Shown piece by piece: positions 3 through 40,100 of a DNA stretch of 64,000 nt (position 1 is its first letter; each line of letters begins with the position of its first letter). This DNA is from a virus. The stretch is from the IMG/VR virus record IMGVR_UViG_3300042945_003044; one strand, given 5' to 3'. The notes under the pieces are model-generated. The model did not search any database, was not told where the DNA came from, and was given only the letters and a program-made list of their open reading frames with translations. Both the position numbers and the translations under genes were made by a program.

Positions 3-767
3 AAAAATGGTATTTATAATGTTACTCCAAGCCCCACATATTCTGGACAGCAAATACTATCAAGGGCGCCAGATGCCAATAGTGATGCTGAAGTTACCGC
101 TGGTATGTTCGTATTTGTTACAGAAGGTACTGTCAATGCCGATAGTGGTTGGGTACTTACAACAAATGATACTATTACGCTTGGAACAACAGCTCTAACT
201 TTTGCTCAATTCTCTGGTGCTGGTCAGATTACTGCTGGTGCTGGTATGGTCAAGAGCGGCAATACTCTAGATGTTGGTACTGCCAGTACTAGTCGAATTG
301 TTGTAAACGCAGACAATATTGATCTTGCTACAGTTACTCAGTCTGATGGTAGCGGATCAGCAGGCTCTACATTTGTTCAATCTGTTACTAGAGATAGTTA
401 TGGTAGAGTCACAGGAGTCACAACAGCGGCCGTGCAAGACGCAACAACTTCGGTTAAAGGTATTGCTAGTTTTGATACCGGAGACTTTAGCGTTAGCGGC
501 GGTGCTGTTAGTATTAAAACCGGAGGTGTCGATAATAGTCAGCTTGCTAATAGTTCTGTCACAGTTGGCTCAACCAGTATCAGCCTTGGTGGATCAGCTA
601 CTACAATAGCTGGTTTAACTAGTGTGTCTAGCACGAGTTTTACCGGGGCTTTGACTGGCAATGCTAGTACGGCTACAACTCTTCAAACAGCAAGGACTAT
701 TAACGGAACTAGTTTTAACGGTTCTGCTAATATTGAAATAGCGTTTGTAGACGGAGGAACTCCATGA
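3..767 (+). CDS. Tail fibre/whisker-like protein, 5' truncated by window edge
   Basis: Frame is open from base 3 (KNGIYNV...RAPDANSDAEVTAGMFVFVTEG), a motif typical of phage fibre proteins. Also GNASTATTLQTARTING repeat and C-terminal DGG. Confidence 0.8.
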   Translation, partial: KNGIYNVTPSPTYSGQQILSRAPDANSDAEVTAGMFVFVTEGTVNADSGWVLTTNDTITLGTTALTFAQFSGAGQITAGAGMVKSGNTLDVGTASTSRIVVNADNIDLATVTQSDGSGSAGSTFVQSVTRDSYGRVTGVTTAAVQDATTSVKGIASFDTGDFSVSGGAVSIKTGGVDNSQLANSSVTVGSTSISLGGSATTIAGLTSVSSTSFTGALTGNASTATTLQTARTINGTSFNGSANIEIAFVDGGTP

Positions 768-3700
768 CCAGTTTTCGAATAAAATCTGATAAAATATTTT
801 TTCGAAACGGTATCAAAACAGCTTTTCGTTCCATTCCGGATCCTCCAACAGAAGTTACAGGTTCTTCTGGCAACAATTCTATATCGTTGGTTTGGACAGC
901 GCCGGAGTTTAGCGGCACTAGTCCTATAACCGACTATATAGTTCAGTATAGCTCTGATAATGGAGGTTCTTGGACTACGGTATCAAAACCAGTATCTACC
1001 TCAACTTCTTTATTAGTTTCGGGACTAGTAAATGCACAAGATTATCTTTTTCGTGTAGCGGCCGTCAATCAGGTTGGTACCAGTTCTTATTCGATAAACA
1101 GTAATAGTTTAGCTCCATTTAATTATGATCCTAATAAATTAGTTTTAGTATACGATACCAGCAAAGAGTCTGTTAATAATACTATCACGCTTCATGTTAA
1201 TGGTACTTCGCCAAATATTTTAGTAGATTGGGGAGACGGAACGTCTTCTACTTATACAGCCACAGGGACTCAAACTAAGACATATACATCTCCAGGTATA
1301 TATGTAGTACAGATTAGTGGTTCTATGACTAGGTTTGGAACATCTCTTGATGGTTCTTCGCCCACAGCGGTAGTCAATATTTCATCAAACAGAAATAGAC
1401 GAAAGCTTGTCAGATGTTTGTCTTTTGGAAATATAGGTATTACGAGTCTTTCTTCCTGTTTTCTAAACTCCATAAATCTAATACAAGTCCCATTGAGCAT
1501 CCCATCTGCTGTAAGCAATATGTCCAGTATGTTTAAGGGTTGTACGTCTTTTAATCAGCCTATTGGTATGTGGAATGTATCTAATATTACAAATATGACT
1601 GATTTGTTTGTTAACGCTTCGTCTTTTAACAGATCCTTGAATTCTTGGGACGTATCTAAGCTTACGAATGCATATTTTATATTTAATAATGCTCTCGCTT
1701 TTAATCAGCCATTAAATAAATGGGATTTGTCGTCAGTCGTAGACGCTATATATATGTTAGATAATGCAAGAAGTTTTAATCAGCCAATAGAAGACTGGAA
1801 TATTTCAAATTTGTATAATACTCAAGACTTACTAAGAGACAATATTTCGTTTAATCAATCCTTAGCCGCTTGGCCTATTTATGGGTTTGATGTTAATACA
1901 TATTTCAATTTTAGTAATATTCCTATCGATATAGAAAACTATAGTAGAACTTTGATTGGCTGGGCTAATTTTGTTAATGATAATGGAGGCGCTCCAACAG
2001 GAGTAAGCTTATTATCTAATAATAGAAAATATCATGATATAGAATATACTTTTGATATGCCTAAATATAGACCTTTTTGGAAAGAAAATAATCTCAGTAT
2101 TACCGGTGGAGTTGGAGCTGTAGCATATGGAAATGGTCGTTCCGTAGGAGTAGGAGCCAATACAGTAGTAGTATCTGATGATGGCATATCGTGGACTAAT
2201 AAAACTATTTCTCAACAAAACTGGGCCGATATAGCTTATGGCAATGGTGTGTTTGTGGCAGTATCTAGGGTTGACTATCCTTTCTTTGGGGGCGTGGTTT
2301 CTGAGCCTACAATTATAAGATCTGTAGACTTTGGAGAAACATGGATTGCGGCGACCCAATCTCCTAATATGCGTATGATTGGAGTATGCTATGACGGTAG
2401 TCGTTTTATTGGTGTCGGTACCACATTTGGTCCCACCTCTCTATATGGCATTAGTTATATATTAGAGATTTTTAGTTCATTAGATGGTAATAGTTGGACA
2501 AAAATAAGCGATATTACAGCTAGTGCCGGAGCTCGCTGTAATAGAATACGATATTTAAATGGGGCTTACTATGTTTTAGATAGTATACATGGTAGGCTTT
2601 TTAGATCAATAGATGCTATTTCATGGACACAGCTAACCACATCTAATTCTACAGATGCTAACTGGTACGATATTGCTTTTGGCAATAACGTATTGGTAAT
2701 GGTTGGAGGAGGAAATAGCTCCTACAACACAGCAGTATCCACTGACGGCATTAATTGGCAAACCTATAAAGGGGCCGACGATTCCCCAGATTTTTTTTGG
2801 TATAGCGTTATATATGCTAACGGTCTTTTTATTAAATGCGGATACACGGGATTAGCATATAGCAGAGATGGCAAGGATTGGATCAGATTTCCGTTTAAGA
2901 AAAACAATGAATGGTATACTCCAGGCTATCATGCTAATGCTAATAGATTTTTTGTTTTCGGATCTGATAATTTGTACGCATATTCTTCTAATACAGGCAA
3001 ATATATTTCAGCTAGCGCAGCAAGAAATTATTTAACTGCGCCAATAGCAAATGGAGGTGCCGGATGGTCTATTACCGGAGATGTATCAGCAAACGAATTA
3101 GTAGTCATCGCCAATAAAATATTAAGACAAACGGTACCAGCATCCACGACCAATGTCGTAGTCAAAGACTCTAATTATACGCGACAAACCAATGGAGAAT
3201 TTGAAACAGACTATGACGTAAGATTACTTAAAAATGGAGATACTCCAGTTAGTGGAATATTAGTAAGCAATAATACTAATGTTATTACTAACCCAGTTCC
3301 TGCTTCTGGTGGTCTAGCCTCATTTGTTTTTCCTGGCGTGACAAAAATAACCGGAACAGACTCCTCCGGCGCTACGGCTTCTGTACAAGTAGTCACAGAA
3401 AGAATACAGGGTTCTGTGGTTGATACTTTTTCGTCATTCGTTAATGGTACAACTGCGCACAATATATCGTCTACAGTAGATACGTTATTAGCAGGTAAAA
3501 CAGCTTCGAGTTCTATTAGAAGATTTTCCGCTCAAAATCATACCACAAATCCTCCAAGCTATCCTTCCAATGCTTCGTTTTGGGCTTCTGCTCTTAATTT
3601 TAGTTGTTGTTCTGTTTGGAATTCTACAGGACTAAATACGATGGGTGGGACACTTATTAGTCCAAGGCACATACTATTTGCTGCTCACTACCAAATCAAT

Positions 3701-4234
3701 ACAGGAGCAATCGTTAGATTTATAGATAGTTCTGGTAATGTCGTTAATAGAACTATGGTTAATAAATTAGTACATCCAGATTACAAACCCTATTATCCTG
3801 ATATAGCTATAGGAGTTCTAGATTCAGACGTGCCAGCAACAGTATCTTTTGCTAAGGTATTACCGACCAATTGGGCCTCTTATTTACCTAATATTTCTTA
3901 TGCTGCTAGAGTGCCAATAATCATTGTGGATCAAGAAGAGAAAGCATTAGTCGGAGATATTGTTTCAGTATCTAATTCTCTAACTATAGCAGAGCCCGTA
4001 AACTCTCAAAGATTAGCGTTTTGGGAATCTATTATTACTGGTGATTCTGGCAGCCCAGGGTTCGTTGTTATTAATAACGAATTGGTTTTGGTTACGGTCC
4101 TAACGTATGGAGGACTATTTACTTCTGGTACTTTTCTTGTTCCTCACATTAGTGCTATTAATACAATGATGAATACTTTAGGTGGAGGATATCAATTATC
4201 TACAGCTAATTTAACAGGATTTCCAAGTTTCTAA
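764..4234 (+). CDS. Mosaic virion protein: FN3 + PKD-like + DUF285/BspA-like repeats + BNR/SxDG beta-propeller + C-terminal trypsin-like serine protease
   Basis: WTAP..YIVQYS..YLFRVAAVN (FN3); VDWGDG (PKD); FNQPIGMWNVSNITNM-type repeats; SDDGISW/SLDGNSW/STDGINW repeats; AAHY / DIAIG / GDSGSP triad motifs. Confidence 0.8.
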   Translation: MTSFRIKSDKIFFRNGIKTAFRSIPDPPTEVTGSSGNNSISLVWTAPEFSGTSPITDYIVQYSSDNGGSWTTVSKPVSTSTSLLVSGLVNAQDYLFRVAAVNQVGTSSYSINSNSLAPFNYDPNKLVLVYDTSKESVNNTITLHVNGTSPNILVDWGDGTSSTYTATGTQTKTYTSPGIYVVQISGSMTRFGTSLDGSSPTAVVNISSNRNRRKLVRCLSFGNIGITSLSSCFLNSINLIQVPLSIPSAVSNMSSMFKGCTSFNQPIGMWNVSNITNMTDLFVNASSFNRSLNSWDVSKLTNAYFIFNNALAFNQPLNKWDLSSVVDAIYMLDNARSFNQPIEDWNISNLYNTQDLLRDNISFNQSLAAWPIYGFDVNTYFNFSNIPIDIENYSRTLIGWANFVNDNGGAPTGVSLLSNNRKYHDIEYTFDMPKYRPFWKENNLSITGGVGAVAYGNGRSVGVGANTVVVSDDGISWTNKTISQQNWADIAYGNGVFVAVSRVDYPFFGGVVSEPTIIRSVDFGETWIAATQSPNMRMIGVCYDGSRFIGVGTTFGPTSLYGISYILEIFSSLDGNSWTKISDITASAGARCNRIRYLNGAYYVLDSIHGRLFRSIDAISWTQLTTSNSTDANWYDIAFGNNVLVMVGGGNSSYNTAVSTDGINWQTYKGADDSPDFFWYSVIYANGLFIKCGYTGLAYSRDGKDWIRFPFKKNNEWYTPGYHANANRFFVFGSDNLYAYSSNTGKYISASAARNYLTAPIANGGAGWSITGDVSANELVVIANKILRQTVPASTTNVVVKDSNYTRQTNGEFETDYDVRLLKNGDTPVSGILVSNNTNVITNPVPASGGLASFVFPGVTKITGTDSSGATASVQVVTERIQGSVVDTFSSFVNGTTAHNISSTVDTLLAGKTASSSIRRFSAQNHTTNPPSYPSNASFWASALNFSCCSVWNSTGLNTMGGTLISPRHILFAAHYQINTGAIVRFIDSSGNVVNRTMVNKLVHPDYKPYYPDIAIGVLDSDVPATVSFAKVLPTNWASYLPNISYAARVPIIIVDQEEKALVGDIVSVSNSLTIAEPVNSQRLAFWESIITGDSGSPGFVVINNELVLVTVLTYGGLFTSGTFLVPHISAINTMMNTLGGGYQLSTANLTGFPSF

Positions 4235-5056: not shown

Positions 5057-6433
5057 ATGCCAGCTAATACAACCATAACTTTACGAAAAGGAACAGCTTC
5101 GTTATGGAGTTCTACCAATCCTGTATTGGCTAGTGGAGAGCCTGGATATGATGTTACTAATAATATCTTAAAAATTGGTAACGGTATTAATAACTGGAAT
5201 TCTTTGTCTAGTATTAATCCTAGAACAATTAAAGAAACTATCATATTAAATAGTCCTAGCGGCACTTTTAATGTTTCTGGCGGATATACGGTTGGTACTC
5301 TAGATATATTTTTAAATGGTATTAAACTATCTCAATATGGAGACTATACCGCCAATGACGGATCCACATTTTCTTTAACAGATATTGCTCCCAGCGGGTC
5401 TGTTATAGAGTATATGGCGGTTTCGCCTACTATTACCGATTTTTCTTTTCTAAGCTATAATGATTTTGCGGCCAATGTCAGCGGATTATTACCCGTTAAA
5501 AATATTTTAGCAGGGCCGAACGTATCTATTACTAATAGTAGTGGTAATTATTCTATTGGAGTTAGTGGGAGTTTAGGACTTACCACAGAAGAAGTAGATG
5601 ACAGAGTAGCTTCTCTTCTGGTGGCAGGAACAGGCATAAATATTAATTATGATGATGTTAATAATAGTTTAATAGTAAGCTCAGAAAATTATTATGGAGC
5701 CAATAGAGGTACTATTAATGTTACTTCTAACACTTCGTCTTTTAATGTTCCTGGTGGATATACCGCTGGCGCCTTCGATCTATTTCTTAACGGAGTTAAA
5801 CTAGTTAATGATATAGATTTTACAGCAACCAATGGGTACTCGTTCAGCACAATATCCCCGATACCTTCTGGTAGCGTATTGGAATATATTAGTTTGACCC
5901 TTGCTAATCCATTACATATTGCTACCGATCAATATAGCGCCGAAATTAGTAGAGATATTATTAGTGTCACGGGTTCATTGAGTACTATTAATATAGTCGG
6001 CGGATATGATGTAGGTGGTTTAGATATATATAAAGATGGATTAAAATTAATTAAAAACGCCCAGTATACGGCCAACGATGGGGCTACTGTTACGCTTAAT
6101 ACGCCAGCCGCCTCTGGATCGGTAATCGAGTATGTGTCTTTTATTTCGGGTAAAGCTAGAAGAAGCATAAATACTATATCGGCGTCAACTACCGCTGGCA
6201 CCACACCACAAACAGATTATATTTATGTAGCGACAGCACCGGGTGTCACCGTCACGATGCCATCGGCTGTTGATAATAATAATAGGTATACTATTAAAAA
6301 TTTAAGTAATGGAACAATCAACGTAATACCACAAAGTGGACAAACTATAGACAATCAGTCTATTATTGCTATAATAAATCAATACGTTTCTATTGATCTG
6401 GTCAGTAATAGTCAAAACTGGATCATTATTTAA
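5057..6433 (+). CDS. Fibre protein with Mtd-N/hyaluronidase-type N-terminal anchor and three internal ~60-aa repeats
   Basis: LRKGTASLW..NPVLASGEPGYD....LKIGNG...W anchor motif; 3x GGY..G.LDI(F/Y).(N/D)G.KL....(Y/F)TA..G. Confidence 0.8.
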   Translation: MPANTTITLRKGTASLWSSTNPVLASGEPGYDVTNNILKIGNGINNWNSLSSINPRTIKETIILNSPSGTFNVSGGYTVGTLDIFLNGIKLSQYGDYTANDGSTFSLTDIAPSGSVIEYMAVSPTITDFSFLSYNDFAANVSGLLPVKNILAGPNVSITNSSGNYSIGVSGSLGLTTEEVDDRVASLLVAGTGININYDDVNNSLIVSSENYYGANRGTINVTSNTSSFNVPGGYTAGAFDLFLNGVKLVNDIDFTATNGYSFSTISPIPSGSVLEYISLTLANPLHIATDQYSAEISRDIISVTGSLSTINIVGGYDVGGLDIYKDGLKLIKNAQYTANDGATVTLNTPAASGSVIEYVSFISGKARRSINTISASTTAGTTPQTDYIYVATAPGVTVTMPSAVDNNNRYTIKNLSNGTINVIPQSGQTIDNQSIIAIINQYVSIDLVSNSQNWIII

Positions 6434-9803: not shown

Positions 9804-10184
9804 ATGGCAGCAACACCACAGTTTGCATCATCACCAAGACTAGGAATAGCAACAATATCTACTGCAAACACCAATCTTAATGGATCAGGAACTCTAGTTA
9901 ATGTTGTTGTAGCTGGTGCTTCTGGCACCAAAATTAATGAGATTACTATACAGGCGGCCGGTACTGTTACTTCTGGTATGGTTAGATTATTCATTTTTGA
10001 CGGAACTACCAATTATCTATTTGATGAGTTTCCTATATCCTCCACTATTCCTTCGTCTAGTGCCACAGCTTATAGAACATATAAAAGTTATGATAATTTT
10101 GTATTACCTTCTGGCAATACTCTTAGAGCATCTACAGCAAATGCAGAAACCTTCAACGTTATGGCTTGGGGTGGGGATCTATGA
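9804..10184 (+). CDS. Small beta-sandwich fibre adaptor protein
   Basis: MAATPQF...GGDL small all-beta protein of a type often found between phage fibre genes. AGGA RBS. Confidence 0.65.
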   Translation: MAATPQFASSPRLGIATISTANTNLNGSGTLVNVVVAGASGTKINEITIQAAGTVTSGMVRLFIFDGTTNYLFDEFPISSTIPSSSATAYRTYKSYDNFVLPSGNTLRASTANAETFNVMAWGGDL

Positions 10185-11476
10185 ACAATGGCATATTTAG
10201 CGCATATAATACAAGATATGATTCTTCAGTATATCCTGTTATTAATTTAACTGTAGATACCGACAACCTTTCTCTGCCCAAAAATTATGATATAATCAGA
10301 CTTACTAGTTCGTCTGTAATAACCATAACAGGATTAGTAGGTATCAAGGACAAGATTTTTACCATGTTTAACGTTGGATCTTATGATATTAGAATAGCTA
10401 ATCTATCTTCTTTTAGTATTTCTACGAATAAAATCTTAGTTTCTAATAATAATGATGTTATTCTATCTCCTAACGAATCTATTACTTTGTTTTATGATGA
10501 TTCTAATAAGCTTTGGAGAACAGCAGGGGTTATTAAAGCCTATAATCCAACAGATTTTACTTTTGCTAATGTTTATGATTTTACTGTTACAAGCGCTCCA
10601 AGTACCGCAACAGGATCATCTGGATCGTGGACATGGACCCTACCATCTTCCGCTAAGTTTATAGAGATTATAACTATTGGAGCGGGTGGAGGAGGCGGTA
10701 GTGGAAGAAGAGGTGCTGCTGGATCTACTAGGGGTGGTGGAGGCGGAGGAGGATCTGGTGGTATTAGTATACATAGAGTATCCACATCATTATTCTCTTC
10801 CTTAACTACAACAATAACAGTTGCTGCTGGCGGCGCTGGAGGGGCTGCTGTAACAGCAAATGATACGAATGGAAATAGTGGAGCTAATCCTACTACATTT
10901 ACTACTGTGTTTTTTCCTAGTAACTATAATTTTAGTACTGGTCCTGGAGATGGTGGTGGTGGAGGGTCTACTTCTGGAGGTGTCGGTGGTATCGCTGCTA
11001 ATTCCGGAAACGGAAGACCTTCGACATATCAAGGTTCTACTGGAGGTACTGGGGGAACAGGAAATGCTGGAGGTAATGGCCAATCTGTAGCCGGTTCTGC
11101 TAATAATTCTAGCGGATGGTGCAAAAGTGGTGGCGGTGGCGGTGGTATAAGTTCGTCAAATATTCATTATGCTGGTGGTACTGGGACTTTTCCTGGTGGC
11201 GATCTGTTCGGATATACGTCAACTGGAAGTTATAATCCCGCTGGAGGAGTTGCTGGAGGAGGCAATGGAGAAAGTGCTCCTGCTGTAGTATATCTGAACA
11301 GAATAGGTAGTGGAGGCGGCGGTGGAGGAGCTAATAATGCTGGCGCAGGTGGTGTTGGTGGTACTGCTAGTGTAGGAGGTGGTGGTGGCGGAGGAGGTGC
11401 TTCTGTTAATGGATTTAATAGTGGAGCTGGAGGGAATGGCGGAGATGGTTTTGTAAGAATTACAGTATGGAGCTAA
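10181..11476 (+). CDS. Glycine-rich (polyglycine-II type) fibre tip protein
   Basis: IGAGGGGGSG...GAGGNGGDGFVRITVW glycine-rich domain. An ATGA overlap with the upstream stop sets the start at 10181. Confidence 0.8.
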   Translation: MNNGIFSAYNTRYDSSVYPVINLTVDTDNLSLPKNYDIIRLTSSSVITITGLVGIKDKIFTMFNVGSYDIRIANLSSFSISTNKILVSNNNDVILSPNESITLFYDDSNKLWRTAGVIKAYNPTDFTFANVYDFTVTSAPSTATGSSGSWTWTLPSSAKFIEIITIGAGGGGGSGRRGAAGSTRGGGGGGGSGGISIHRVSTSLFSSLTTTITVAAGGAGGAAVTANDTNGNSGANPTTFTTVFFPSNYNFSTGPGDGGGGGSTSGGVGGIAANSGNGRPSTYQGSTGGTGGTGNAGGNGQSVAGSANNSSGWCKSGGGGGGISSSNIHYAGGTGTFPGGDLFGYTSTGSYNPAGGVAGGGNGESAPAVVYLNRIGSGGGGGGANNAGAGGVGGTASVGGGGGGGGASVNGFNSGAGGNGGDGFVRITVWS

Positions 11477-12190: not shown

Positions 12191-15100
12191 ATGGGAAATT
12201 TAATTCCATCAAATAATAATGATGATAATTTAGACTTTAATCCAACCAAACTTCCTGGATGCAAGGTTTGGATAGATGCTACTGATGAATCTACACTATT
12301 TACCACCGATTATCAAGGATCTGTAACTGTTCCTGATAATTTTACACCCACCAGTGTTGGCGGTTGCTCTACTTGGTATGATAGCTCTGATGCCTCTACA
12401 TTATATAATACTAGTGCTGGGCCAGTTACTGCGGTTTCTAGTCCAACAGAAGTTAGTGGGTGTGCTTTGTGGCTGGATGCTGCTGATAATACATCAATAT
12501 ATAAAACTAATGTAGGACCACTATCTCCTGTATCTGCGCCTACAGACATTGGCGGTTGTCAATTCTGGCTTGATGCTTCAGATCCGGCTTCTATGTTTGA
12601 AGATACAGCGGGACTCACTCCTTCTTCGGTGGGCAATACGGTTGGACTATGGAGAGATAAGAGCGGTAATGCCAGACATGTTCAGCAGGCAACCGGGTCT
12701 AAAAAACCAATTCGGTCAACATCTGTCTTCTCTTCTGGAGCGGTGCATTTTGATGGCATAGATGATATCCTTTCTAATCAGACCGCTTCAGAATGGGGAT
12801 GGGCTACAGGAGGTAGTATGACATGGATCTTCGTTGGTCAACGAGGCGACACCCCGTCCGTATCATCAGATTATCGTTACTGGTTTGGAAACGGAGAGCC
12901 ATTATATCAATCAAACATCAATAGCTTCGGGATATTTGTAGAAGATCAAAATCCTCATAATGGTCGTTTACAATTTGTCATAAGCCAAGGTGGCGCCCAC
13001 AATAAACAGAACGTAACTTTTGATACAAATAGCTCCCCTGACGCAACAATATGGCTGCATACTCTGGCCTATGAAGCTTCTACTCCATCTGTATTCATGA
13101 GAGGACAGGGCTCTGATCGCACAATTACAACGGTCAATACTAATGTCGCTACTAGCGGAGTGTCCCCGAATTTTGGTCTTTCGGTAGGAGCAGATTCTCA
13201 CAACTCATACGCTGGCTCTAGGTTCGGAGATATTAGGCTGGCCGAGGTCTGTGCTTTTAATCGCAGGTTGACGAATGATGAAATATATAGAGTTGAAAAA
13301 TATCTAGCCGATAAGTGGAATATTTCTGATGTTAATGGTACCGTTACGAATAGCGGAGATACAATTGGAGCCTGGAGAGATAAAAGTGGCAACGGCTTCC
13401 ATGCGACTCAACTTAATAATAATCAAAGGCCTTCTAGAAATATTAATCCACAAAATAATTTACAGGGATTACAATTTTCTAATGCTAATTCAACATTATT
13501 AACTACTCAAATATCGGGCTCTCTTACTAGTAGTACGCAAGACTATACTGTGTTTTTAGTATGTCAAAGAACAGCAGTTCATGATGGAGAAGTAATTTTA
13601 GGTAGGCGAACCCCGGGCTGTTACGCAAGCGCTTTGTACTACAATAATCCTGGAGCAAATTCAACAAATATTCAGTTTTATAACTCTGGACCAGAAATAG
13701 CTTTTCCAACAGAAGTCGGCATACCCACCTCCGTACAAATGATATGTTTATCTAGATCTGGATCTACTAATTATAGTGGATGGCAAGCAGGACTATCTTC
13801 TTTTATCGATTCTTCTATGGGATCTGGCCCTGCATCGTCTCTGCTTTCTAATATTGGGGCATCGTGCAATGGGTCATCCGGAATGACCGGGTATATTTAT
13901 GAAATTTTAGCATATAATCGTAATTTAACCAGAGAAGAAAGAGCTTCTGTCGAAAAGTACTTAGCTAATAAGTGGAATACAACAGACAACCACGTTGCAA
14001 CAACCGCTAATAGCAAGGTAGGATATTGGGCAGATAAAACAGGAAATAATCGCCATGCTAGACAAGATGTTTCTAGCTATAGGCCATCATATTCAGGATC
14101 TATCAACGACCTTCCTGCTATAACATTTGATGGGGCGGATGATCATTTTTTAATAGGGAATTTATCTGCTGTGTTTCCTACTTTTGGCGAAGTCTTTATT
14201 GTTTTTGAACCTGATAATACAGTATCGTATTCTCTTTATCAGACTAAAGTTAACTATGCGTATTTTACATATGACGGATCTAGTAATTTTGGATATTTTA
14301 CTAATAATAAATCAGCAACCTTCACTTGGGATAGGCCCAGGACTGGAACTAATATTACTTCTGTTCGGTCAGCATCTGGAACTTTATTTGTTAGATTGAA
14401 TGGTAATCACATATATTCGCAATCAGGTCTTGGTCACGACGGAGGAAACAATCACGCTATTGGTTTTACTTACTCGGGCGGAGGTGGAGTTTCGGGAGTC
14501 GTCATGAAAGGTAAAATAGTAGAAGTTATTACCTTTAATACTGATATAGGAACTGAAAATAGAGCACGGGTAGAACAATACTTGTCTAAAAAATGGGGTA
14601 TGCAGACTACATTGCATGACAAAAGCAGTCAGCCCGGAGAAAAAATAGGTTATTGGAAGAATAAAACAGATTTAAATTTTGCTCTTTCTCAGTATAGAAT
14701 AGAAAAACAAGGAGAAATTGGTTTTATTAATGGTAAAAGAGCCGTGTCTTTTGAAAATAATTCTGGCTTTTTACTTGCTTATCTAGCTAATACTGTACCG
14801 GGAGAGGAACTAAGTTTTTTTTGGGTTTGTAATATTACAAAGCCTGGTGTTAATAATCAAGTAGTTTTTAGATTTGGTAATTATAGTGGATATACTCAAA
14901 TAGCAAAATTTGATGATCGTATAGAATATGGCGGAACTAATGGAATAACCATTAATAATCCTCCACAAACGAAGAACTTACCAATTATAGAATCTGTTAT
15001 TAAAAGTAATGGAACAATATGGAATTCTACTAACGTTTATCGTAATGGTATTTTATTACCAAAGAACAACCTCGGAGTAGATGGTAACCTATCTACTGGA

Positions 15101-18100
15101 TCTAATGATGTATTGATTATAGCCGGTTATAGTTCGGATGCTAATTTTCTTGGTACCGGCGGTATGATCATAGGAGAGTTTATTTGTTACAATAGGGCTG
15201 TGAGCGATCAAGAGCGCAAATTAGTTGAAAAATATCTGCACGATAAATGGAATATCAACAAATTAACTACATCTATATCTAAACCAACAGACATATCAAG
15301 ATGCTCTATGTGGCTTGATGCGAATGACCCTAAAACACTATTTGTTGATACGGCGGCAAGTACTAATGTTTCAGCGGACGGACAAACTATTGCATACTGG
15401 GCTGATAAAGTTTCTGGACAAGACGTTATTCAGGCTACGGTTTCTGCTCGCCCGACATATCGCACGAATATGCAAAATGGCAGACCTATGCTTTATTTTG
15501 ATGGCGGAGACGATCTTTTATCTCAGGTAAATAGACCATATGCGGCTCCTTGCACACTATTTGTGGTGTGCAGAATAGATTCTCACTCCGGAGATGTTTC
15601 TGGTATTGTGACACACGGAGATAGTACTGGAGGACTTAATGGTCCAGGATTTTGTTATATAGGATCAACGGCGGCAGGAGCTTGCTTGGTGTTTTTGGAT
15701 GGTGCTGGCGCTGGTACAACCTCTTCTAGTAACACAAACTCTAGTATGCTGGGTTTGCCCAGGGTTATTACGGGAGTTTATAATCAAAGCAATACCTCCA
15801 ATTCTCTAATATATGTGAATGGAAATCTAGAAGAAAACTTTACGGGTACCGGAGTTACATTAAACGCCGCAGCAAACAGAGTTCAAATAGGTGCAAGAAC
15901 AGGAGGAGGGCAAACAGCCAGAAGAATGATCGGGTATGTTGCCGAATGTATCAGATATGATCGTGTATTAACAGATAATGAAAGAGCCATGGTTGAGAAC
16001 TATCTCTCTGAAAAATGGGGATTAGGATCATACTCTTCACCAAATAGTATTGGATCGTCTATTGTTCGACACAACATTAAAGTCTCCAATAAAGATGCTC
16101 AAAATTGGGTAGATAGAGTTTTTCAAAACGGAGGAAGCGTTAGTGAACGAACAGCGGATCGGGTCAACTCTTTATGCAATAGAATAGACGCTGCTGGAAT
16201 TAGAAAGAAATTTTATAGAGTTAACTTATTTTGTGGTAATGACCTAGCTGCTTGCTTAACGCCGTTATATTTGGGTCCTGATAATAATACATTTTATGGA
16301 AGTAGAACGGATACAAATAACGGTTTTGTAGGACCTAATTATGATGAAAAAAATGGGCTGATTTCAACAGCACAGGGAAACCATTTATTGACAGGAGTAT
16401 CTTTTGATGCTATAGGAGCGTCAGATTTTGGTCATATGGCTTTTTATCAGACTCAATACAATATCGATACTAATGAATATGCTGGTGGTAACAGAGTAGT
16501 TATGGGCGGTGGATCAATTAGTATTGCTTTTTTTGATACCACAGACGGACACTATTTAGGTTCTAACTATGGGCCGTTTGTGCCGACAAGAAGCTCTTAT
16601 TTCGGGGGTTTATTTGTATCAAATAGAAGCAGTGCTACCAATTTTAAATCGTATGAACAAGGTAGCACCGTTTCCCAAAACTCTCTTAATATGTTGTATC
16701 AAACACCCCAAACATCACAGATCGGCATATTTACTAATGGATCAGTAGGAGCTTCTGGTTTCACATATATTTCCGGATATCTTAAAGGGTATAGTTTTGG
16801 CCATAGCATGTCTGATGCGGAAGTATCAACATATAGTAGTATTATGGAAGATTTCCAAACGTCTCTTGGAAGAGGACTCCCAATTCGACCATCGGCACAA
16901 TTCGCCTCCGTTACAAATAGCGAAGCTAAATCTTGGATAGATGCTGTTTATACTAATAATGGCACTGTAAGTATCAGTACGGCTTTGGCTGTTAATAATT
17001 TTTGTAATAGTATAGATGCTGCTGGATTACGAAATAAGTTTTATAGACTTAATTTATTCTGTGGAAATACTATTAATAGTTGCTTAGTGCCTTTATATAG
17101 AGCACCAGCTCGCCTAGGTCCTAGATATGGCAATCAAAATGACATTAATATACCTATATCATACGGATACTATGTTAATTCTGACGATTTTAACTATATA
17201 GAAAATCAAGGATTGTTAGGAAATACTCAAGAAATTGCTGGAAATAGCAATATTTCTAGAAGATATTTAGACACTGGTCTTATTACAGGATCTATTAGTC
17301 AGTTAAATAACGACATGCACTATGCTATTTATAGCAAAGATCTAACTAGTGGTGGATATGCTATGGGAGCATATGATGGTGCTAGTACAGGATTTTCATT
17401 ACAAATAGGTTTGGCCGGGTATAATGTTGGAGCTTTTGCTAATGCTCGGTTAAATCAAACTAATACCTCAACCACAGCTATATATCCAACAAGAAAAGGA
17501 CTTTATGTTGGTAATTATTCTAATTACATACTTAATCTTTATGAGGGTAGAGCTAATGTGGTGGGACAGCGAGATCTAACGTTTGCAAATGCTTTGAATC
17601 CCACCACAGTTAGTACTGTTTCAATTTTTGCTGAAAATAGAGTAGGAAACGGCATTGCTCTATTTAATTATTTGGATAGATTACAAGGCTATTCTATAGG
17701 AACATCATTAACATCTGCTGATGTACAGAATTACTACGATATAATGCAAACTTTCCAAGCGGCATTATCACGAGCACAACAAACAACACTAAGTTCAACT
17801 TTTGATAGTATCACTAATGCTGATGCTAGAGATTGGCTTACTAGAGTATATGAAAACGGTGGAACTGTCAGCCTGTCAACCGCAACTGCTGTACAAAATT
17901 TTTGTAACACTATAGATTCTGCCGGATTAAGAAGCAGGTTCTTTAGACTCAATTTATTCTGTGGAGACAACTTAAATGCTGCTACTGTACCTCTTTATAG
18001 AGGACAGGGTGTTAGCAGTACACAGCATGGATTTCTAATTGATATAAATACTAACTTTACTAGTTCCGACTATAATCAGAGCGGTAGTTTTGCTGGTATT

Positions 18101-21197: not shown

Positions 21198-22901
21198 ATG
21201 ACCATATCTAGAAAAAACGCTAATTTAGGACAGTCTATTAATGCTTCTGGCATTAGTGATACTATTTATATAGCTAATAATAATGTTGGTATAAATGTTA
21301 GCAATCCATTATATCAATTAGATGTGGCTGGTACTGGTAATTTTAGTCAGGGTATTTTTGTTAATGGCACGGGCGTTAGTATTGGTGGTCATTCACATAA
21401 TATTTCCGATATTAATAATTTACAGTCTACACTAAATAATATATCCACTATTCAAGGTACTCAGGGCGTTCAGGGAATTATTGGTACACAAGGAATACAG
21501 GGTTTATTTGGTATTCAGGGGTTTATTGGTAGTCAAGGTACCACGGGTAGCACGGGAGGTCAAGGTGTTCAAGGCATTACGGGTAGTCAAGGCGTTCAAG
21601 GAATAACTGGTAGTCAAGGAACTACGGGCAACACTGGCAGTCAGGGAATAACTGGCTTACAAGGAACCACAGGTAGTCAGGGAGTAACCGGTAGTCAAGG
21701 CACTACTGGTAGTCAGGGCTTAACAGGAAGTCAAGGAATTGATGGCGTTCAAGGTTTGACCGGTAGTCAGGGCTTAACGGGCAGTCAAGGCACCATGGGT
21801 AGCCAAGGAATCACAGGCAGTCAAGGCTTAACGGGCAATCAAGGTATTCAAGGCCTAACAGGCAGTCAAGGTTTGACTGGTAGTCAAGGCTTAACGGGTT
21901 CGCAAGGCGTTCAAGGTTTGACGGGTAGTCAAGGCACCACGGGTAGCGCTGGCAGTCAAGGAGTTCAAGGTATTACGGGTAGTCAAGGCACCACGGGTAG
22001 CGCTGGCAGTCAAGGAGTTCAAGGTATCACGGGCAGCCAAGGTATTCAAGGTATTACGGGTAGTCAAGGTACTACTGGTAGTCAGGGCTTAACGGGCAGC
22101 CAGGGTATTGCTGGAAGTCAAGGTATCACGGGCAGTCAAGGCTTAACCGGTAGTCAAGGTACCACCGGAAGTCAAGGAGCCTCCGGTAGCGCGGGAGGTC
22201 AAGGTGTTCAAGGTATCACGGGCAGTCAAGGCGTTACGGGTAGTCAGGGGATAACAGGCCCGCAGGGTACCATTGGAGCAACCGGTCCTGTAGGTCAAGG
22301 TTTTTCAGATGGTAATAAAGGAGATATTACGATAAGCAATGGCGGAGCTACTTTGAGTATTAATACCGACTCTGTTACAACAGTAGATATTGCTAACGGG
22401 GCTATTACCACATCAAAACTAGATACTAATATTACCATCGATTGTGGCGTGATCCTACCTCCCAATACTCCCACAATAACCAGTACTCCTACTCAGACGC
22501 CCACATTGACTCCCACTCCAACAGCCAGTTCGGTATTATCAGCCTCTTTACAAAAAGCTTCAACTGGAGTATTTGATTCGGCTACAGGTTCTGGTACATC
22601 TTCTAGCCCATTAACATGGAATGGGTTGGTTGAAAATAATGGCACATATTTAATGTTCACATGTCTTGCTACAGGAACATTAAACCTAACAACGACAGTA
22701 CGCAGTGGTTGTGGCGATTTTGGGTGCGATGTAATACAGGTCACGAAAAACAATCTATTGGCTTGGGAGATACCCTTAACAAACGGAGCCACGCTGTCTA
22801 GATCTACGACATTTTCTGTAGCTACTAATGATATAATCAGATTATATATCTTAAATGAATGGGGAGCGAGAGTACAATCTTTTTCGGCTAATATACAATG
22901 A
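21198..22901 (+). CDS. Collagen-like fibre protein with PT linker and C-terminal beta domain
   Basis: About 94 continuous Gly-X-Y triplets, then DGNKGDITIS, IDCG and a PT tract. Confidence 0.9.
   Translation: MTISRKNANLGQSINASGISDTIYIANNNVGINVSNPLYQLDVAGTGNFSQGIFVNGTGVSIGGHSHNISDINNLQSTLNNISTIQGTQGVQGIIGTQGIQGLFGIQGFIGSQGTTGSTGGQGVQGITGSQGVQGITGSQGTTGNTGSQGITGLQGTTGSQGVTGSQGTTGSQGLTGSQGIDGVQGLTGSQGLTGSQGTMGSQGITGSQGLTGNQGIQGLTGSQGLTGSQGLTGSQGVQGLTGSQGTTGSAGSQGVQGITGSQGTTGSAGSQGVQGITGSQGIQGITGSQGTTGSQGLTGSQGIAGSQGITGSQGLTGSQGTTGSQGASGSAGGQGVQGITGSQGVTGSQGITGPQGTIGATGPVGQGFSDGNKGDITISNGGATLSINTDSVTTVDIANGAITTSKLDTNITIDCGVILPPNTPTITSTPTQTPTLTPTPTASSVLSASLQKASTGVFDSATGSGTSSSPLTWNGLVENNGTYLMFTCLATGTLNLTTTVRSGCGDFGCDVIQVTKNNLLAWEIPLTNGATLSRSTTFSVATNDIIRLYILNEWGARVQSFSANIQ
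21456..22301 (+). repeat. Collagen Gly-X-Y coding repeat, including a 54-bp tandem duplication (21921-22028)
   Basis: Recurrent GGYAGTCAAGG units. 21921-21974 repeats at 21975-22028 with one mismatch. Confidence 0.9.
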
Positions 22902-26643: not shown

Positions 26644-27633
26644 ATGAAAAGCGAACTTTCAAATTTTGTCAAATATTGTGTAGACCAAGGAGGTGGCTTA
26701 TATCCATTATTAGTATCTAGTAATGACATAATTGGACCATCATTAACTAATCCTTCTATTATTAATCTAAATGGACAATTATTAGTTAATTTACGTAATG
26801 TTAATTATGTCCTATACCATGCTGAACACGGCATTAATGAACACGTATGGGGACCATTATGCTACTTACACACCGAACAACATCAAGTATTAGCAACCCA
26901 TAATATACTTTGCGAATTAGATAGTAATCTAAATATAGTTTCTAATTCTATAGCGGACACTAAGAATCTAGACGCTAAGCCACTATGGGAGTTTATTGGA
27001 CTAGAAGACTGCAGGCTGGTTCATTGGGATCAGAAATTATTTTTGAGCGGCGTGAGACGGGATACAACACCAAATGGTCAAGGAAGAATAGAACTATCGG
27101 AAATAGTTTCTGAACAAAATAGCTGGAAAGAAATTTCGAGACAAAGACTACCGGCTCCATATCCAGATAATTCATATTGTGAAAAAAATTGGATGCCCAT
27201 TATGGATAGGCCGTATCAGTATGTGAAATGGACAAACCCCACAGAAGTCGTGGAATATAATCCAGAAACTAAAGAGACTAAAACGGTTATTTTAACAGAA
27301 TATCAAAATTTGAACACTAGAGATTTAAGGGGCGGTTCTCAGGTTATCCCCTATAAAGATTATTACTTAGCTATTGTTCATGAAGTAGACTTATTTAAGA
27401 GTGAAGCGGGTCGCAAAAATGCCACATATAGACATAGGTTTATTTTATGGGACAAGGACTTTAATCTACTTAGAGTATCTCCGTTGTTTGACTTTATGGG
27501 CGGAGAAATAGAATTCGCTTGCGGTATGACACGTTATAACAATCAAATATTAATAACTTTTGGGTTTCAAGACAATGCCTCTTATTTACTAGCTGTTAAT
27601 ACTACTACTATAGACGAGATTATGGGATTATGA
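26644..27633 (+). CDS. Five-bladed beta-propeller glycoside hydrolase/phosphorylase/transferase-like protein (GH130/GT91-like)
   Basis: NPSI, GLEDCRL, EKNWMP, LRGGS and IEFACG motifs. Confidence 0.7.
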   Translation: MKSELSNFVKYCVDQGGGLYPLLVSSNDIIGPSLTNPSIINLNGQLLVNLRNVNYVLYHAEHGINEHVWGPLCYLHTEQHQVLATHNILCELDSNLNIVSNSIADTKNLDAKPLWEFIGLEDCRLVHWDQKLFLSGVRRDTTPNGQGRIELSEIVSEQNSWKEISRQRLPAPYPDNSYCEKNWMPIMDRPYQYVKWTNPTEVVEYNPETKETKTVILTEYQNLNTRDLRGGSQVIPYKDYYLAIVHEVDLFKSEAGRKNATYRHRFILWDKDFNLLRVSPLFDFMGGEIEFACGMTRYNNQILITFGFQDNASYLLAVNTTTIDEIMGL

Positions 27634-28874
27634 GAGAGTTATCAGATTATATAAAAGACCCCGACAATGATCTCAATAATTTTTATTTAGGTCTATTTTA
27701 TGAGAATCAGAACCACCACGCTCCCGCATCAGGTTTTTATTTGAGGTGTGCAGAAAAAACTTCTAGTATTGACTTACGATATGAGTCTTTATTAAGGATG
27801 TATCTATGCTATAGAAATCTAGGAGGCAGAGACTATACATGTGAAACACTATTAAAACAAGCTATATCTTTGTGTCCACGCAAACCAGAAGCTTATTTTT
27901 TTCTCACTCAATATTACGAAGCTAAATCAGATTGGTCTAGCATATATACCTATGCTAGTATATCTTTAGATATCTGCGAAGAGAAGTCGGTATTTTTTTC
28001 TACAATAGAATTTCCTGATTTATATGCTTTGTTATTCCAGAAAGCGGCCTCGGCGTGGTGGATAGGAAAACCCCTAGAGGCAAGGAAATTATTTAAGGAG
28101 CTGTTTAATAATTATATTGATAAGATGACAGATAAGTATAAAACTTTATTAGAAAATAATTTATCTAGACTAGGTAGTGGCCCAGAGTCTCAGGCCATAA
28201 GACCATACAATAAAAATCTTAAAGATAACTTAAACTTTACTTTTAAAGGTATAGATTTAGTAGATCATAATTTTTCTCAAGTATATCAGGATATGTTTAT
28301 ACTGACTGCCCTAAATGGCAAGCGTAATGGGTCATACTTAGAAATAGGCTCGTCCGACGCTTTAAAAAACAGCAATACCGCACTACTAGAGACCAAGTTT
28401 GATTGGACAGGAATTGGTATAGAATTTAATCAGGACTTTGTTAACACCCATAAAAATCAAAGAAAAAACCCTGTATTATGTACGGATGCTCTGATCGTGA
28501 ACTATGAGAAATTGTTAACTAAATATTTTCCAGGTCAAAACAATATAGATTATTTACAACTAGATATAGAGCCGCCCAAAAACACATATGAGGCCTTATT
28601 AAGTATTCCTTTTGATAAATATAAATTTGCCGTAATAACATATGAGCACGATGACTATATAGATATATCTCGTTCATATAAACAAAAATCTAGAGAGTAT
28701 TTACAGTCTCTGGGTTATATTTTAGTGGTCAATGACGTATCTCCCGATCAAAATAGTTCTTTTGAGGATTGGTGGGCTCACCCAGATTTAGTAGACATTG
28801 ATATAATAAAAGGGCTAAAATCTCAAATATCAGAAGATCTAAACCAAGTAGAACGAGTCTTTTTGCATAAATAG
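27630..28874 (+). CDS. TPR-repeat + FkbM-family SAM methyltransferase
   Basis: Helical TPR-like N-terminus (AISLCPRKPEAYFFL); SQ..QD.F, YLEIGS, SNT..LE...W.GI.IE, IDYLQLDIE, IT.EHD, EDWW motifs. Confidence 0.8.
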   Translation: MRELSDYIKDPDNDLNNFYLGLFYENQNHHAPASGFYLRCAEKTSSIDLRYESLLRMYLCYRNLGGRDYTCETLLKQAISLCPRKPEAYFFLTQYYEAKSDWSSIYTYASISLDICEEKSVFFSTIEFPDLYALLFQKAASAWWIGKPLEARKLFKELFNNYIDKMTDKYKTLLENNLSRLGSGPESQAIRPYNKNLKDNLNFTFKGIDLVDHNFSQVYQDMFILTALNGKRNGSYLEIGSSDALKNSNTALLETKFDWTGIGIEFNQDFVNTHKNQRKNPVLCTDALIVNYEKLLTKYFPGQNNIDYLQLDIEPPKNTYEALLSIPFDKYKFAVITYEHDDYIDISRSYKQKSREYLQSLGYILVVNDVSPDQNSSFEDWWAHPDLVDIDIIKGLKSQISEDLNQVERVFLHK

Positions 28875-33623: not shown

Positions 33624-34622
33624 ATGAGTAATAAAAGAATTTTTTACGCTTGCCAGGCAATCGAAATTCAGCCAATAGCCGCAAATGGTACAACAAGTAC
33701 AGCTGTTAAGCCCAAGGGTGTACAGAGCGTTGGAATGAACACCAACTTCAATCTCGAAAAGATCTTCCAGCTTGGTCAAATCGATCTTTATGATAATATC
33801 GAGAACAATCCCGAAGTTGAAATCACAGTCAATAAAGTATTTGACGGAACCGTACCTGTTTATCTTTTAGCGATGGGTGGCGGTCAGGTAGAGGGCAATA
33901 TAGGCGATTTTGCCAACAACAGAGCAAATGTTAAGCTTGGCATCTATAGTGATACCGGCGCCCTAGCTAGTGGCACAGCACAGCACACAGTAACATGCAC
34001 AGGCATGTATGTTTCCAGTGTTGGTTTTACCTTCCCAACCGATGGTAATGCTACAGAAGATGTTACCTTAGTTGGCAACAGTAAGACTTGGAGCGCTGGT
34101 GGTCTCAGTGCTTTCGTACCAAGTTCCGGCCCATACACAGCCCCAGCCACAGCTCGCAGATGGAAGTTCAATAGAGCAGAGAGCGTATTTCCTACTGGCG
34201 CAGGTGGTATAGGTAGTACCGCTCCTATTCAAAGCGTATCAGTAAATGCTGACTTTGGTAGAGAGTCTATTTACGAACTTGGTTCGTATACTCCATATCA
34301 TAGATACGTCAATTTCCCCGTTGAAGTCACTTCGGAAATTGAGGTTCTTGCTACTACTGGTGATTATTTAAACATCAGCGAAGCCACATATTCCTGCACC
34401 GGAACAGGAGAGGGTAGAGTACAAGATAAAGAAATTAAATTTGTTATTTGCGGTAGTGGCACAGGAGATAATCTAACTATCGATCTTGGCAAGAAAAACA
34501 AGATCACTTCTGTAAACTATCAAGGTGGAGATACTGGTGGTGGTAATGCTACAATTACTTATAGCTTTACTACAGATAACTACCTTAAGGTCACAGCAAA
34601 CGGCACCTTCGAGTCTGTTTAA
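33624..34622 (+). CDS. Major tail tube protein
   Basis: Internal duplication of the tube motif (GVQSVG..TNF.LE.IFQLG / IQSVSV..DFGRE.IYELG); GGAG RBS; position before chaperones and tape measure gene. Confidence 0.75.
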   Translation: MSNKRIFYACQAIEIQPIAANGTTSTAVKPKGVQSVGMNTNFNLEKIFQLGQIDLYDNIENNPEVEITVNKVFDGTVPVYLLAMGGGQVEGNIGDFANNRANVKLGIYSDTGALASGTAQHTVTCTGMYVSSVGFTFPTDGNATEDVTLVGNSKTWSAGGLSAFVPSSGPYTAPATARRWKFNRAESVFPTGAGGIGSTAPIQSVSVNADFGRESIYELGSYTPYHRYVNFPVEVTSEIEVLATTGDYLNISEATYSCTGTGEGRVQDKEIKFVICGSGTGDNLTIDLGKKNKITSVNYQGGDTGGGNATITYSFTTDNYLKVTANGTFESV

Positions 34623-37171: not shown

Positions 37172-40100
37172 ATGTCACAATCGTTTAATTTAACAGCCCA
37201 GCTAAATTTAAGAGGACCATCTAATGTTAGAAATATTGTATCTGATATTAGAAGACAATTGGGGTCAATTTCCGCAGATGTGAACTTACGATTGGACCAA
37301 AATGCCTCACGCAATGTTACTCAGCTCAATGCTGCTTTAAGAAATCTTAACAATACTTTTGGCACTACTCAGACAGCGGCCAGAAATGCTGCAAATGCTA
37401 TTAGAGATTTTTCTCAGGCGGTCGGTAATGCCGGAGTGGCTAATTTACCAAGACAGCTCAATAATGTCGTTACCGCTACACAAAGAGTCGGAGCTACTAG
37501 CACCACAGCGGCCAGACAGTTAAATGTTGCTAGAACAGAAATGGAAGAGTTCGGAAGACAGTCGGCCTTAGCTATTAGAAGATTTGCTGCATTTAGCTTA
37601 GCCACCGGCGCCGTATTTTCTTTTACAGGAGCCATCAATAAAGGCATAGCCGCATTTATCGAGTTTGATAAAGAATTCGTTAAGCTGCAACAGGTTACAG
37701 GCGAATCTGCAGATGGTCTTAAGAGACTATCGAATACTATTACGTCATTATCTGTTGATTTTGGAGTAGCATCAGGAGACCTTATCAAAGTATCATCAAC
37801 ATTAGCCCAGGCCGGTTTAAGCGCCAAAGATACCGAGAGAGCATTAAAAGCATTGGCTCTTAGTGCTTTAGCTCCGTCTTTTGATGATATGAATAAAACG
37901 GTGGAAGGCTCTATTGCTTTGATGAGACAGTTCGGCATTGGAGCGTCTGATCTAGAAAAAGCGCTAGGCTCTGTTAACTCGGTTGCTGCCAGATTCGCAG
38001 TAGAAGCCAGCGATATTATAGCCGCTATTCAGCGTACTGGTGGAGTGTTCGCTTCTGCTAGTAATGGAGTTAGTCAGGGTACCGATGCTCTTAATGAGTT
38101 TATAGCGGTATTTACTAGTATACGAGCCACTACTCGTGAAAGCGCAGAAACTATTGCTACTGGTTTACGTACTATTTTTACTAGAGTTCAAAGAGGAGGA
38201 ACTATAGAGGCTCTGAAAGAATTCGGGGTTAATCTAACCGATGCAGAGGGCAAGTTCGTTGGAGCATATAAGGCTGTTGAGTTATTGTCTAGAGGATTAA
38301 ATCAAATAGATCCGAGAGATTTAAAGTTTTCTCAGATTGTTGAGGAGCTTGGCGGCTTCCGTCAGATCGGTAAGGTTATTCCATTAATTCAGCAATTCGG
38401 AACAGCCCAGGAAGCTTTGAAGGTAGCACAGACTGGGCAGGGGTCTTTGGCGGCAGACGCGGCAACAGCCCAGTTGTCCCTGGCTAATCAGATAGCCAAA
38501 GTAAGAGAAGAATTTACTGCTCTTGTAAGAGATATTGGTGGCTCAGATACTTTTCAGACACTGGCAAAGGGAGCGCTGCAGCTCGCTAGTGGTTTGATTC
38601 AAGTAGCGGATAGCGTTAAAGGAGTTTTGCCTATTCTTGGATTGATGATGGCCGTTAGAGGAGCTAGTGTAGCGACTCAATATGGTTCTGGTTTTATAGG
38701 AGGTCTTCGTAGAGGCAACGCTGGGGGAGCAGCTGCTCCTAGAAGAAATGCTTATGGGGGTTATATAAGTAGATATAAAAAAGGAGGACCAGTAGATGTT
38801 CCAGTTGCTTTGATGCCGGGAGAGGCCGTGGTATATCCTGAAGCGGTTAAAGAAGTAGGCGTATCTAAATTAAGAAAAATGAATTATGCAGACAGAAAAC
38901 CTATGGCCAAAGGAGGTAAGGTTGGATTGGTTCCAGGATCTGGCAATACCGATAGTTTTTATACTACTCTTCCAGAAGGTAGTTTTGTTATAAGAAAAAA
39001 GGCTACGGAAGCACTCGGTGGACCAGAAGGTATTTTAGGGTCTTCGGGTTATCAATACGGCGGTTCTGTGCAAAGATTCCGCGGAGGATCTTCTTCCGGT
39101 CTCAAGGAGACGCAAAGAACTCACATAGGACCAAAAGTTCCTCTTAGTTATCGAGAGGCGATGGCAGCGAAAAAAAGAGGCACCGGTTCACTAAAGGTGG
39201 TGAGTGGTAAAACAGAAAGACAAATTAATTTTGAACCCAATATATCTACGTTAATAAATCAGAGACTTAGAAGAAAGACAGGAAAAACTGGAGTTACTAA
39301 AAAAGAGTTAGTCGAAGACATCTCAAAAAGATCCCCCGAACAACTTTTTGGCGATGGAGGCGTACCATCTGTTATATTCAAAGAGTTGCTTGCATCAAAA
39401 AAGCTTGAGGGTCTTAAGACGGCCTTGTTGAGAGGTGTTAAGTCTAGATCTGTACCTCAGACTCTAAGATCAGACTCAGAATTAGACTTTATTCTGGAAA
39501 AGAATATTAAACCATATTTATCTAAAATTAATACTCAGGTCGGTAGTTTGTGGGATGAATTAATGCAGTACCAGGCGCTCACCAATCCTAGAGAGGTTGG
39601 TGGTCGTACAACCCTCCCAGCTGTTAAAAAGGTTTTAGGAAAATCTTTCGGCTCAACTTTTGCATCTGGAGGTCTTATACAAAAATTTGCCAGAGGTACC
39701 TCTAAGCCTTTGGAGGCCATGGGTAAGGCTGATTTACTTAAGGAAGCAGAAAGGCTAGGAGTCAATATTCCTATAGAGCTTAGACGTTTTCTAGATCCAA
39801 GAGCAAAGGGGTCTGAACAGACCAGAGCAAAGATCATTAAAGATCTACAAGAAAAAAGAACTATCACCAAAACATCCGAAGAGAATATTGCCAATAGGGC
39901 TAAAAACAGAAAATTAGCCGTTGTTGGACTACGAGGCGATACGTCCTCTTCTACCGTTACGACTCCGGGACTTAAAGATAAAACAGGAAGACAAAGATTA
40001 CGAGGGGTCCCAGCGACCCTGCAAACCGGCAGTCTACCAAATGATCTAGCGACACAAGTGGAAGATATTATACGTTCTCAATCAGAAAGCATAGTAGCTC

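Follow-up and report, generated by a model that had tools for sequence, protein, structure and literature searches.

Predicted recursive nesting of lectin-fold domains in a tail-fibre-type protein of an uncultured tailed phage

The IMG/VR record IMGVR_UViG_3300042945_003044 is a single virus sequence (99,836 bp, linear, about 67% complete according to CheckV), of which we analysed a stretch of 64,000 nucleotides, referred to here as the window. The window carries all its large open reading frames (ORFs) on the same strand, and one of them encodes a 2969-residue fibre- or adhesin-like protein, P0001, which is the subject of this work. In our models the whole protein resolves into 11 predicted lectin-fold domains of the ConA-like/LamG type: four nested within one another at the N-terminus, one contiguous domain and six arranged in tandem. 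Coordinates are collected in Table 1.

Head and body motifs in the N-terminal region

Regular expressions run on the translated ORF find the motif PT..GC..W.D..D, which marks what we call a head (H), at residues 18, 53, 85, 117 and 1032, that is, starting at nt 12242, 12347, 12443, 12539 and 15284. What we call a body (B) begins with G.W.(D/N)K, found at residues 152, 393, 611 and 820 (nt 12644, 13367, 14021 and 14648), and closes with VE.YL..KW, found at residues 368, 587, 794, 1012 and 1268 (motifs beginning at nt 13292, 13949, 14570, 15224 and 15992). The resulting N-terminal order is H1 H2 H3 H4 B1 B2 B3 B4, followed by a contiguous H5+B5 unit. No head motif lies between bodies B1 to B4 in P0001, and the gaps between these bodies amount to just 16-18 residues. 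An earlier note on this DNA, made from the letters alone, had described four heads in a row, four bodies in equal number, each ending in VE.YL..KW, and an intact domain downstream. Its order, its counts and its positions for the heads and the intact domain agree exactly with ours; the bodies start 6 nt before the figures it quoted, and the end positions that it gave are the ends of the VE.YL..KW motifs.

Bodies B1 to B5 are homologous to one another (phmmer E values of 1e-5 to 1e-13). Scanned alone, the contiguous fifth domain (LamG5, residues 1028-1285) scores 28.8 bits for the Pfam family Laminin_G_3 (PF13385), above the cut-off of 27.6 (E 1.6e-6), and several homologues bear precomputed PF13385 matches; no Pfam family is matched by full-length P0001 or by B1 to B4 alone. 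At the DNA level the heads show a mean column identity of 63%, and Tandem Repeats Finder (TRF) calls no tandem array across them. A recent repeat duplication or an assembly artefact is therefore ruled out as the source of the head pattern, and the heads are old and diverged.

Table 1. Features of the P0001 gene and of neighbouring genes in the window (pLDDT, predicted local distance difference test; VIA, residue range aligned by VIA-align)
Feature	Nucleotides	Strand	Residues	Basis and remarks
P0001 gene, fibre/adhesin-like protein of 2969 residues	12191..21100	+		single 2969-codon ORF; 11 predicted ConA-like/LamG-fold domains
N-terminal peptide MGNLIPSNNNDDNLDF	12191..12241	+	1-17	identity 0.68 (mean pairwise, 13 depth-4 homologues); low pLDDT
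Head H1, predicted first beta-strand of the outermost domain, partner B4	12242..12346	+	18-52	motif; strand 24-29, pLDDT ~90; VIA 20..1017
Head H2, predicted first strand of the second domain, partner B3	12347..12442	+	53-84	motif; strand 59-64; VIA 44-59..~800
Head H3, predicted first strand of the third domain, partner B2	12443..12538	+	85-116	motif; strand 91-96, pLDDT >90; elimination; split-chain ESMFold2
Innermost contiguous domain H4+B1	12539..13318	+	117-376	VIA 112-122..~380, Z 17-18; most variable cassette
Body B1, within the H4+B1 domain		+	152-376	motifs
Headless LamG body B2	13367..13975	+	393-595	motifs; AlphaFold2 model; phmmer; split-chain model
Headless LamG body B3	14021..14596	+	611-802	motifs; AlphaFold2 model; VIA; most conserved body
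Headless LamG body B4, predicted to close the nest with H1	14648..15250	+	820-1020	motifs; AlphaFold2 model; VIA
Contiguous LamG domain 5 (H5+B5)	15284..16018	+	1032-1276	Laminin_G_3 match; motifs
Six tandem repeats of 270-298 residues	16070..21097	+	1294-1567, 1570-1867, 1870-2139, 2142-2420, 2423-2697, 2700-2969	
Collagen-like tail-fibre gene, directly downstream	21198-22901			Pfam Collagen 1.5e-43; PHROG tail fibre 1.7e-72
Mtd_N fibre protein	5057-6433			
Gly_rich_2/minor-tail protein	10166-11476			
Weak tail-tube-like match	33624-34622			

Predicted pairing of heads and bodies

Residues 1-1040 were modelled with AlphaFold2 on a 25-row alignment, giving a mean pLDDT of 76.4 and a predicted template-modelling score (pTM) of 0.67. 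Residues 20-130, which hold all four heads, reach pLDDT values of 88-96, and every head is predicted as a six-residue strand (24-29, 59-64, 91-96 and 123-128). We read the pairings from the model ranges covered in VIA-align alignments to PDB structures, taking the 50 best matches. Single compact ConA-like domains align with 190-230 of their residues over the model range 20..1017; they include 5hon_A, the 206-residue domain 4 of AbnA (192 residues aligned, Z 19.2, root-mean-square deviation 2.9), and, with 182 residues aligned, the NC4 domain of collagen IX (2uur). A domain of about 200 residues can cover 1000 residues of the model only when the H1 strand and B4 belong to a single domain in it. 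H2 is paired with B3 by the same reasoning, because the single domains 2d43_A, 1ms9_A, 2a75_A, 7oa8_A, 1za4_A and others align over 44-59..~800. Lectin domains of the clostridial Hc-N type align over 112-122..~380 with Z of 17-18, and pentraxins, which are without the first strand, begin to align at residue 847. The AlphaFold2 model thus pairs H1 with B4, H2 with B3 and H4 with B1. For these three predicted units VIA-align supports a two-sheet jelly-roll beta-sandwich (Z 17-19.6, 190-230 residues aligned), and all modelled domains of P0001 are predicted to have the lectin fold, B2 alone being without a VIA-align match.

The pairing of H3 with B2 is suggested by elimination and by a split-chain model, in which ESMFold2, run without alignments, was given B2 (residues 385-600) and H3 (residues 78-116) as separate pieces. 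The H3 peptide docks on B2 with an ipSAE of 0.94 against 0.07 for the best control, a mark also reached by 51 of 78 solved complexes and by 2 of 108 mismatched pairs; the runs share at least 89% of their contacts, and the partner pLDDT is at least 76. In these models residues 90-97 of H3 contact residues 570-575, the last strand of B2, and residues 395-399, its W.DK strand. A head would accordingly be an inner strand of the sheet, lying between the W.DK strand and the last strand of its body, an arrangement seen directly for H3-B2 only. With the head inside the sheet, a body without its head would therefore have a gap.

The single-domain targets aligned over 20..1017 and 44-59..~800 describe host domains that are discontinuous, with a complete domain between their parts. 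The inserted domain is itself a host at two levels or more, as read from the three AlphaFold2 pairs, from the fourth pair obtained by elimination and split-chain modelling, and from the balanced strings of the homologues presented below.

Several points weigh against this nested pairing. No H3+B2 row occurs among the 50 best VIA-align matches, and B2 contains a low-confidence stretch at residues 485-512 in the AlphaFold2 model. The pairings were read from where structural alignments to predicted models begin and end, and a predictor may fill in a fold that it knows regardless of how the real protein behaves. The split-chain result is blind to which head binds, since close cousins pass too, and it may echo LamG folds that the predictor has learned. 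Over 78 homologue pairs, co-variation of head and body identities (Spearman) is uninformative except for H4-B1, with no signal for H3-B2 (rho 0.02). A shape search of the ESM Atlas returned no clean H3+B2 range, TM-scores being low (at most 0.28 by query).

Relatives, cassette exchange and genome setting

A word-index search combined with an exhaustive representative search (13,132 matches at E <=0.001) led to 183 relatives, and the 184 sequences including P0001 were scanned with family-built head and body hidden Markov models (HMMs), so that each protein can be written as a string of heads (H) and body ends (E). Thirteen proteins read HHHHEEEE+HE. One level shallower, P0013 and P0014 read HHHEEE+HE and P0045 reads HE HHHEEE; P0017 reads HE HHEE, and 37 proteins show depth-2 forms (HHEE in proteins of about 750-800 residues, HEHHEE or HHEHEE). 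P0002 goes one level deeper and is branched, with HHHH E HH EEEEE + HE. In every complete nested homologue inspected, at depth 2, 3, 4 or 5 and including branched ones, heads and bodies are equal in number. Wherever heads are stacked in a complete protein, a matching run of bodies comes after them, a regularity that is independent of any structure predictor. The unbalanced cases that we checked, namely those with two stacked heads plus several of depth 1, are fragments (P0096, P0131), N-truncated gene calls (P0090, P0183) or partial or divergent head matches, among which P0071, P0092 and P0105 resolve to HHEHEE; P0012 is likewise an N-truncated call. What the depth-3 proteins lack, by alignment, is precisely the innermost cassette: the H3 tail, the H4 core and B1.

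Seven relatives of 1000-1200 residues from other genomes (P0060, P0066, P0071, P0092, P0105, P0107 and P0123) have the form H [H B][H B] B. Two complete LamG domains thus stand side by side in one host loop in these proteins, so that branching is a common feature of the family's nests. The more remote relatives consist of simple tandem arrays (HEHEHE...), whose heads the family-specific head HMM often misses; such tandem LamG arrays are found in phage and bacterial surface proteins. The homologues P0002 and P0093 lie in phage-like contigs. A tblastn search of 50,697 cultured-phage records with the N-terminal 1300 residues of P0001 and with the depth-2 protein P0093 found no cultured relative of the nest, and gave weak single-domain matches only, in cyanophages.

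Mean pairwise identities among 13 depth-4 homologues are 0.70, 0.74, 0.59 and 0.50 for H1 to H4 and 0.33, 0.34, 0.62 and 0.45 for B1 to B4. The ranking of the heads parallels that of their predicted partner bodies, and the inner domains vary most. The H4+B1 cassette of P0001 (12539-13318) shares 90% identity with a cassette that occupies another, deeper nest position in P0002 (locus L001, 2626-12114) and 75% with one in P0017, but only 29-36% with those of most other homologues (40% in P0013, over a partial alignment). LamG5 is 84-91% identical to its counterparts in P0002, P0003 and P0004, and a domain-by-domain comparison reveals still other identity patterns for the C-terminal units. These comparisons indicate that the cassettes are mosaic, exchanged between nest positions and between phages.

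The C-terminal part of P0001, residues 1294-2969, consists of six repeats of 270-298 residues. The last unit, modelled with AlphaFold2 on a 106-row alignment (pLDDT 93.6, pTM 0.92), is predicted to open with two helices, followed by a ConA-like beta-sandwich and a closing helix, the plan assigned to each of the six repeats; the top VIA-align match of the modelled unit is 5hon_B (Z 17.1, 188 of 206 residues aligned). This module is present in many phage proteins in BFVD, including those of uncultured and Rhizobium phages, and the depth-2 relatives of about 780 residues are composed of HHEE and one such helix-capped unit.

The gene lies in the tail/fibre module of a tailed-phage genome, and P0001 is most likely a receptor-binding fibre or adhesin of an uncultured tailed phage. 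Elsewhere in the window, a 1156-residue protein encoded at 764-4234 carries an FN3 domain and DUF285 repeats (Pfam 5.4e-46), and an ORF of 3702 codons at 37172-48280, downstream of the weak tail-tube-like match, may encode a very long tape-measure protein. The stretch 26644-28874, in the structural region, gives a weak GH130-like Pfam match that stays below the cut-off (E 4.6e-4) and a PHROG match of glycosyltransferase type (7.7e-6), which together may mean glycosylation of the virion or fibre. No tRNA genes were found in the window, and PHROG scans of its further ORFs gave no clue to the host.

A nested model and its place among known architectures

Based on the above data, we propose that P0001 is a structural protein of the tail-fibre or adhesin type whose first ~1020 residues probably form four recursively nested ConA-like/LamG domains. 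Each domain would be inserted whole into the loop that follows the first strand of the next-outer domain, so that the chain would go out through four single strands (H1 to H4) and return through four bodies (B1 to B4), with neighbouring domains joined by two linkers. The N-terminus and the exit to LamG5 would then both lie on the outermost domain. In this intramolecular arrangement the inner domains may form a doubly tethered side arm, whose innermost, variable and exchangeable cassettes (B1 and B2) would be glycan-binding tips for host recognition. The conserved N-terminal peptide, possibly the end that attaches to the virion, would together with the outermost domain anchor the arm beside the remaining fibre; the outer domains, LamG5 and the six tandem helix-capped lectin-fold domains would make up the rest of that fibre. 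The family would gain or lose layers as whole head-plus-body cassettes at the same loop after strand 1, or a new layer could arise stepwise, by duplication of a head and then of a body. Recursive insertion into one and the same loop had been put forward in the earlier note, together with two forecasts, and it is supported here by the model-derived pairings and the balanced counts. As forecast, modelling of residues 1-1040 returns H4-B1, H2-B3 and H1-B4 (H3-B2 being reached by elimination and the split-chain run), and the homologues vary in depth from 2 to 5, branched forms included, with heads equal to bodies in every complete nested one inspected.

Equal numbers of heads and bodies would be expected just as well if pairing took place between molecules, the heads of one chain filling the headless bodies of its neighbour by strand complementation to give a domain-swapped or daisy-chained oligomer of interlocked fibres. 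Phage fibres are usually oligomers, and the H3 peptide does dock on B2 in trans in silico. We nevertheless consider this scheme improbable: the monomeric AlphaFold2 model satisfies all heads in cis with high local confidence, the VIA-align ranges fit cis pairing, and the linkers of 16-25 residues match the split loop halves of the contiguous H4+B1 and LamG5 domains.

The short, tandem character of the heads might instead mean that they constitute a separate linker of 32-35-residue repeats, self-folding or flexible, with B2 to B4 as LamG variants that lack the first strand, much as the pentraxin-type relatives of the fold do. Three observations leave this account with very little likelihood. 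The number of heads tracks the number of bodies across five or more architectures, branched ones included; the predicted position of the head strand is mid-sheet, flanked by the first and last strands of the body; and the aligned ranges take in the heads. Lastly, a crossing order of pairs in cis (for example H1-B2 and H2-B4) could be imagined, given that the heads are all alike, that any of them could in principle fit any body, and that co-variation gives no signal for H3-B2, but it is highly unlikely, as AlphaFold2 places three of the four pairs in nested order, the linkers required are shortest for nesting, and the depth-3 relatives are without exactly the innermost unit.

How exceptional, then, is the nested architecture? 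A 2026 survey of 2.7 million ECOD domains found that most insertions are single-level, with inserts smaller than their hosts (typically 115 against 199 residues), and cites the Si3 region of cyanobacterial RpoC2, the RNA polymerase beta' subunit, where hybrid-motif domains are nested recursively to six levels (PMC13114784; also PMC11515920). That precedent tempers the view of the earlier note that recursion to depth four is very unusual (PMC13114784). Si3 is the closest known architecture: as in P0001, domains of the same fold are recursively inserted (A1-B1-C-B2-A2...), the depth varies between lineages, and the product is an elongated appendage. The likeness is architectural and does not extend to family membership, the domains of P0001 being ConA-like/LamG and not homologues of the SBHM/HABAS domains of RNA polymerase. 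Si3 is built from a different, small fold within a cellular enzyme, whereas the predicted nest of P0001 is built from lectin folds of about 200 residues in a phage fibre; its insertions always fall in the loop after strand 1, its cassettes have been reshuffled among relatives, and some forms are branched. Unlike the typically smaller inserts of the survey, those of P0001 equal or far exceed the host domain in size.

The fold itself is familiar. Laminin_G_3/ConA-like domains of phage fibres and tailspikes (PF13385), such as that of the cyanopodophage Pan3 tailspike (9vyh), and domain 4 of AbnA (5hon) share the same beta-sandwich (Z 17-19.6), but these known proteins and the distant relatives are beads on a string, whereas the P0001 family is nested 2-5 deep. 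A Foldseek search of BFVD with the whole nest gave single-domain superpositions only, with query TM-scores of at most 0.20, and no protein there matched the nest in full. The N-terminal lectin-like jelly roll of clostridial neurotoxin Hc (1fv2, 3azv) resembles H4+B1 and the C-terminal repeats (Z 15-18) in fold only, at about 10% identity; P0001 is without a toxin domain and has no sequence relationship to these proteins. Our literature searches led to the Si3 precedent but to no published case of a phage fibre with nested LamG or jelly-roll domains.

Insertion of one domain into another is common, but recursive nesting of a single fold is rare, and its published extreme concerns small domains of one enzyme. 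In the present case, a family of phage fibre proteins appears to use lectin domains of about 200 residues as both host and guest, in a layout that annotation pipelines overlook, the full-length protein drawing no Pfam match at all. The graded natural series (depth 2, 3, 4, 5 and branched) with exchangeable cassettes makes several questions testable: how such a chain folds when its outer domains cannot finish until about 800 residues have been made, how new layers originate, and whether nesting confers rigidity or mechanical shielding. The inner cassettes are flagged as likely determinants of host range, and the arrangement is a possible template for the design of multi-lectin scaffolds. More tentatively, and with somewhat less than even confidence, we suggest that lectin arrays with a tree-like, "matched-bracket" layout may grow by a general rule, in which LamG cassettes always enter at the same loop, after strand 1. 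Under such a rule, depth and branching would evolve freely, inner cassettes would be swapped to retarget host binding, and double tethering would provide a rigid arm that shields the inner domains from load.

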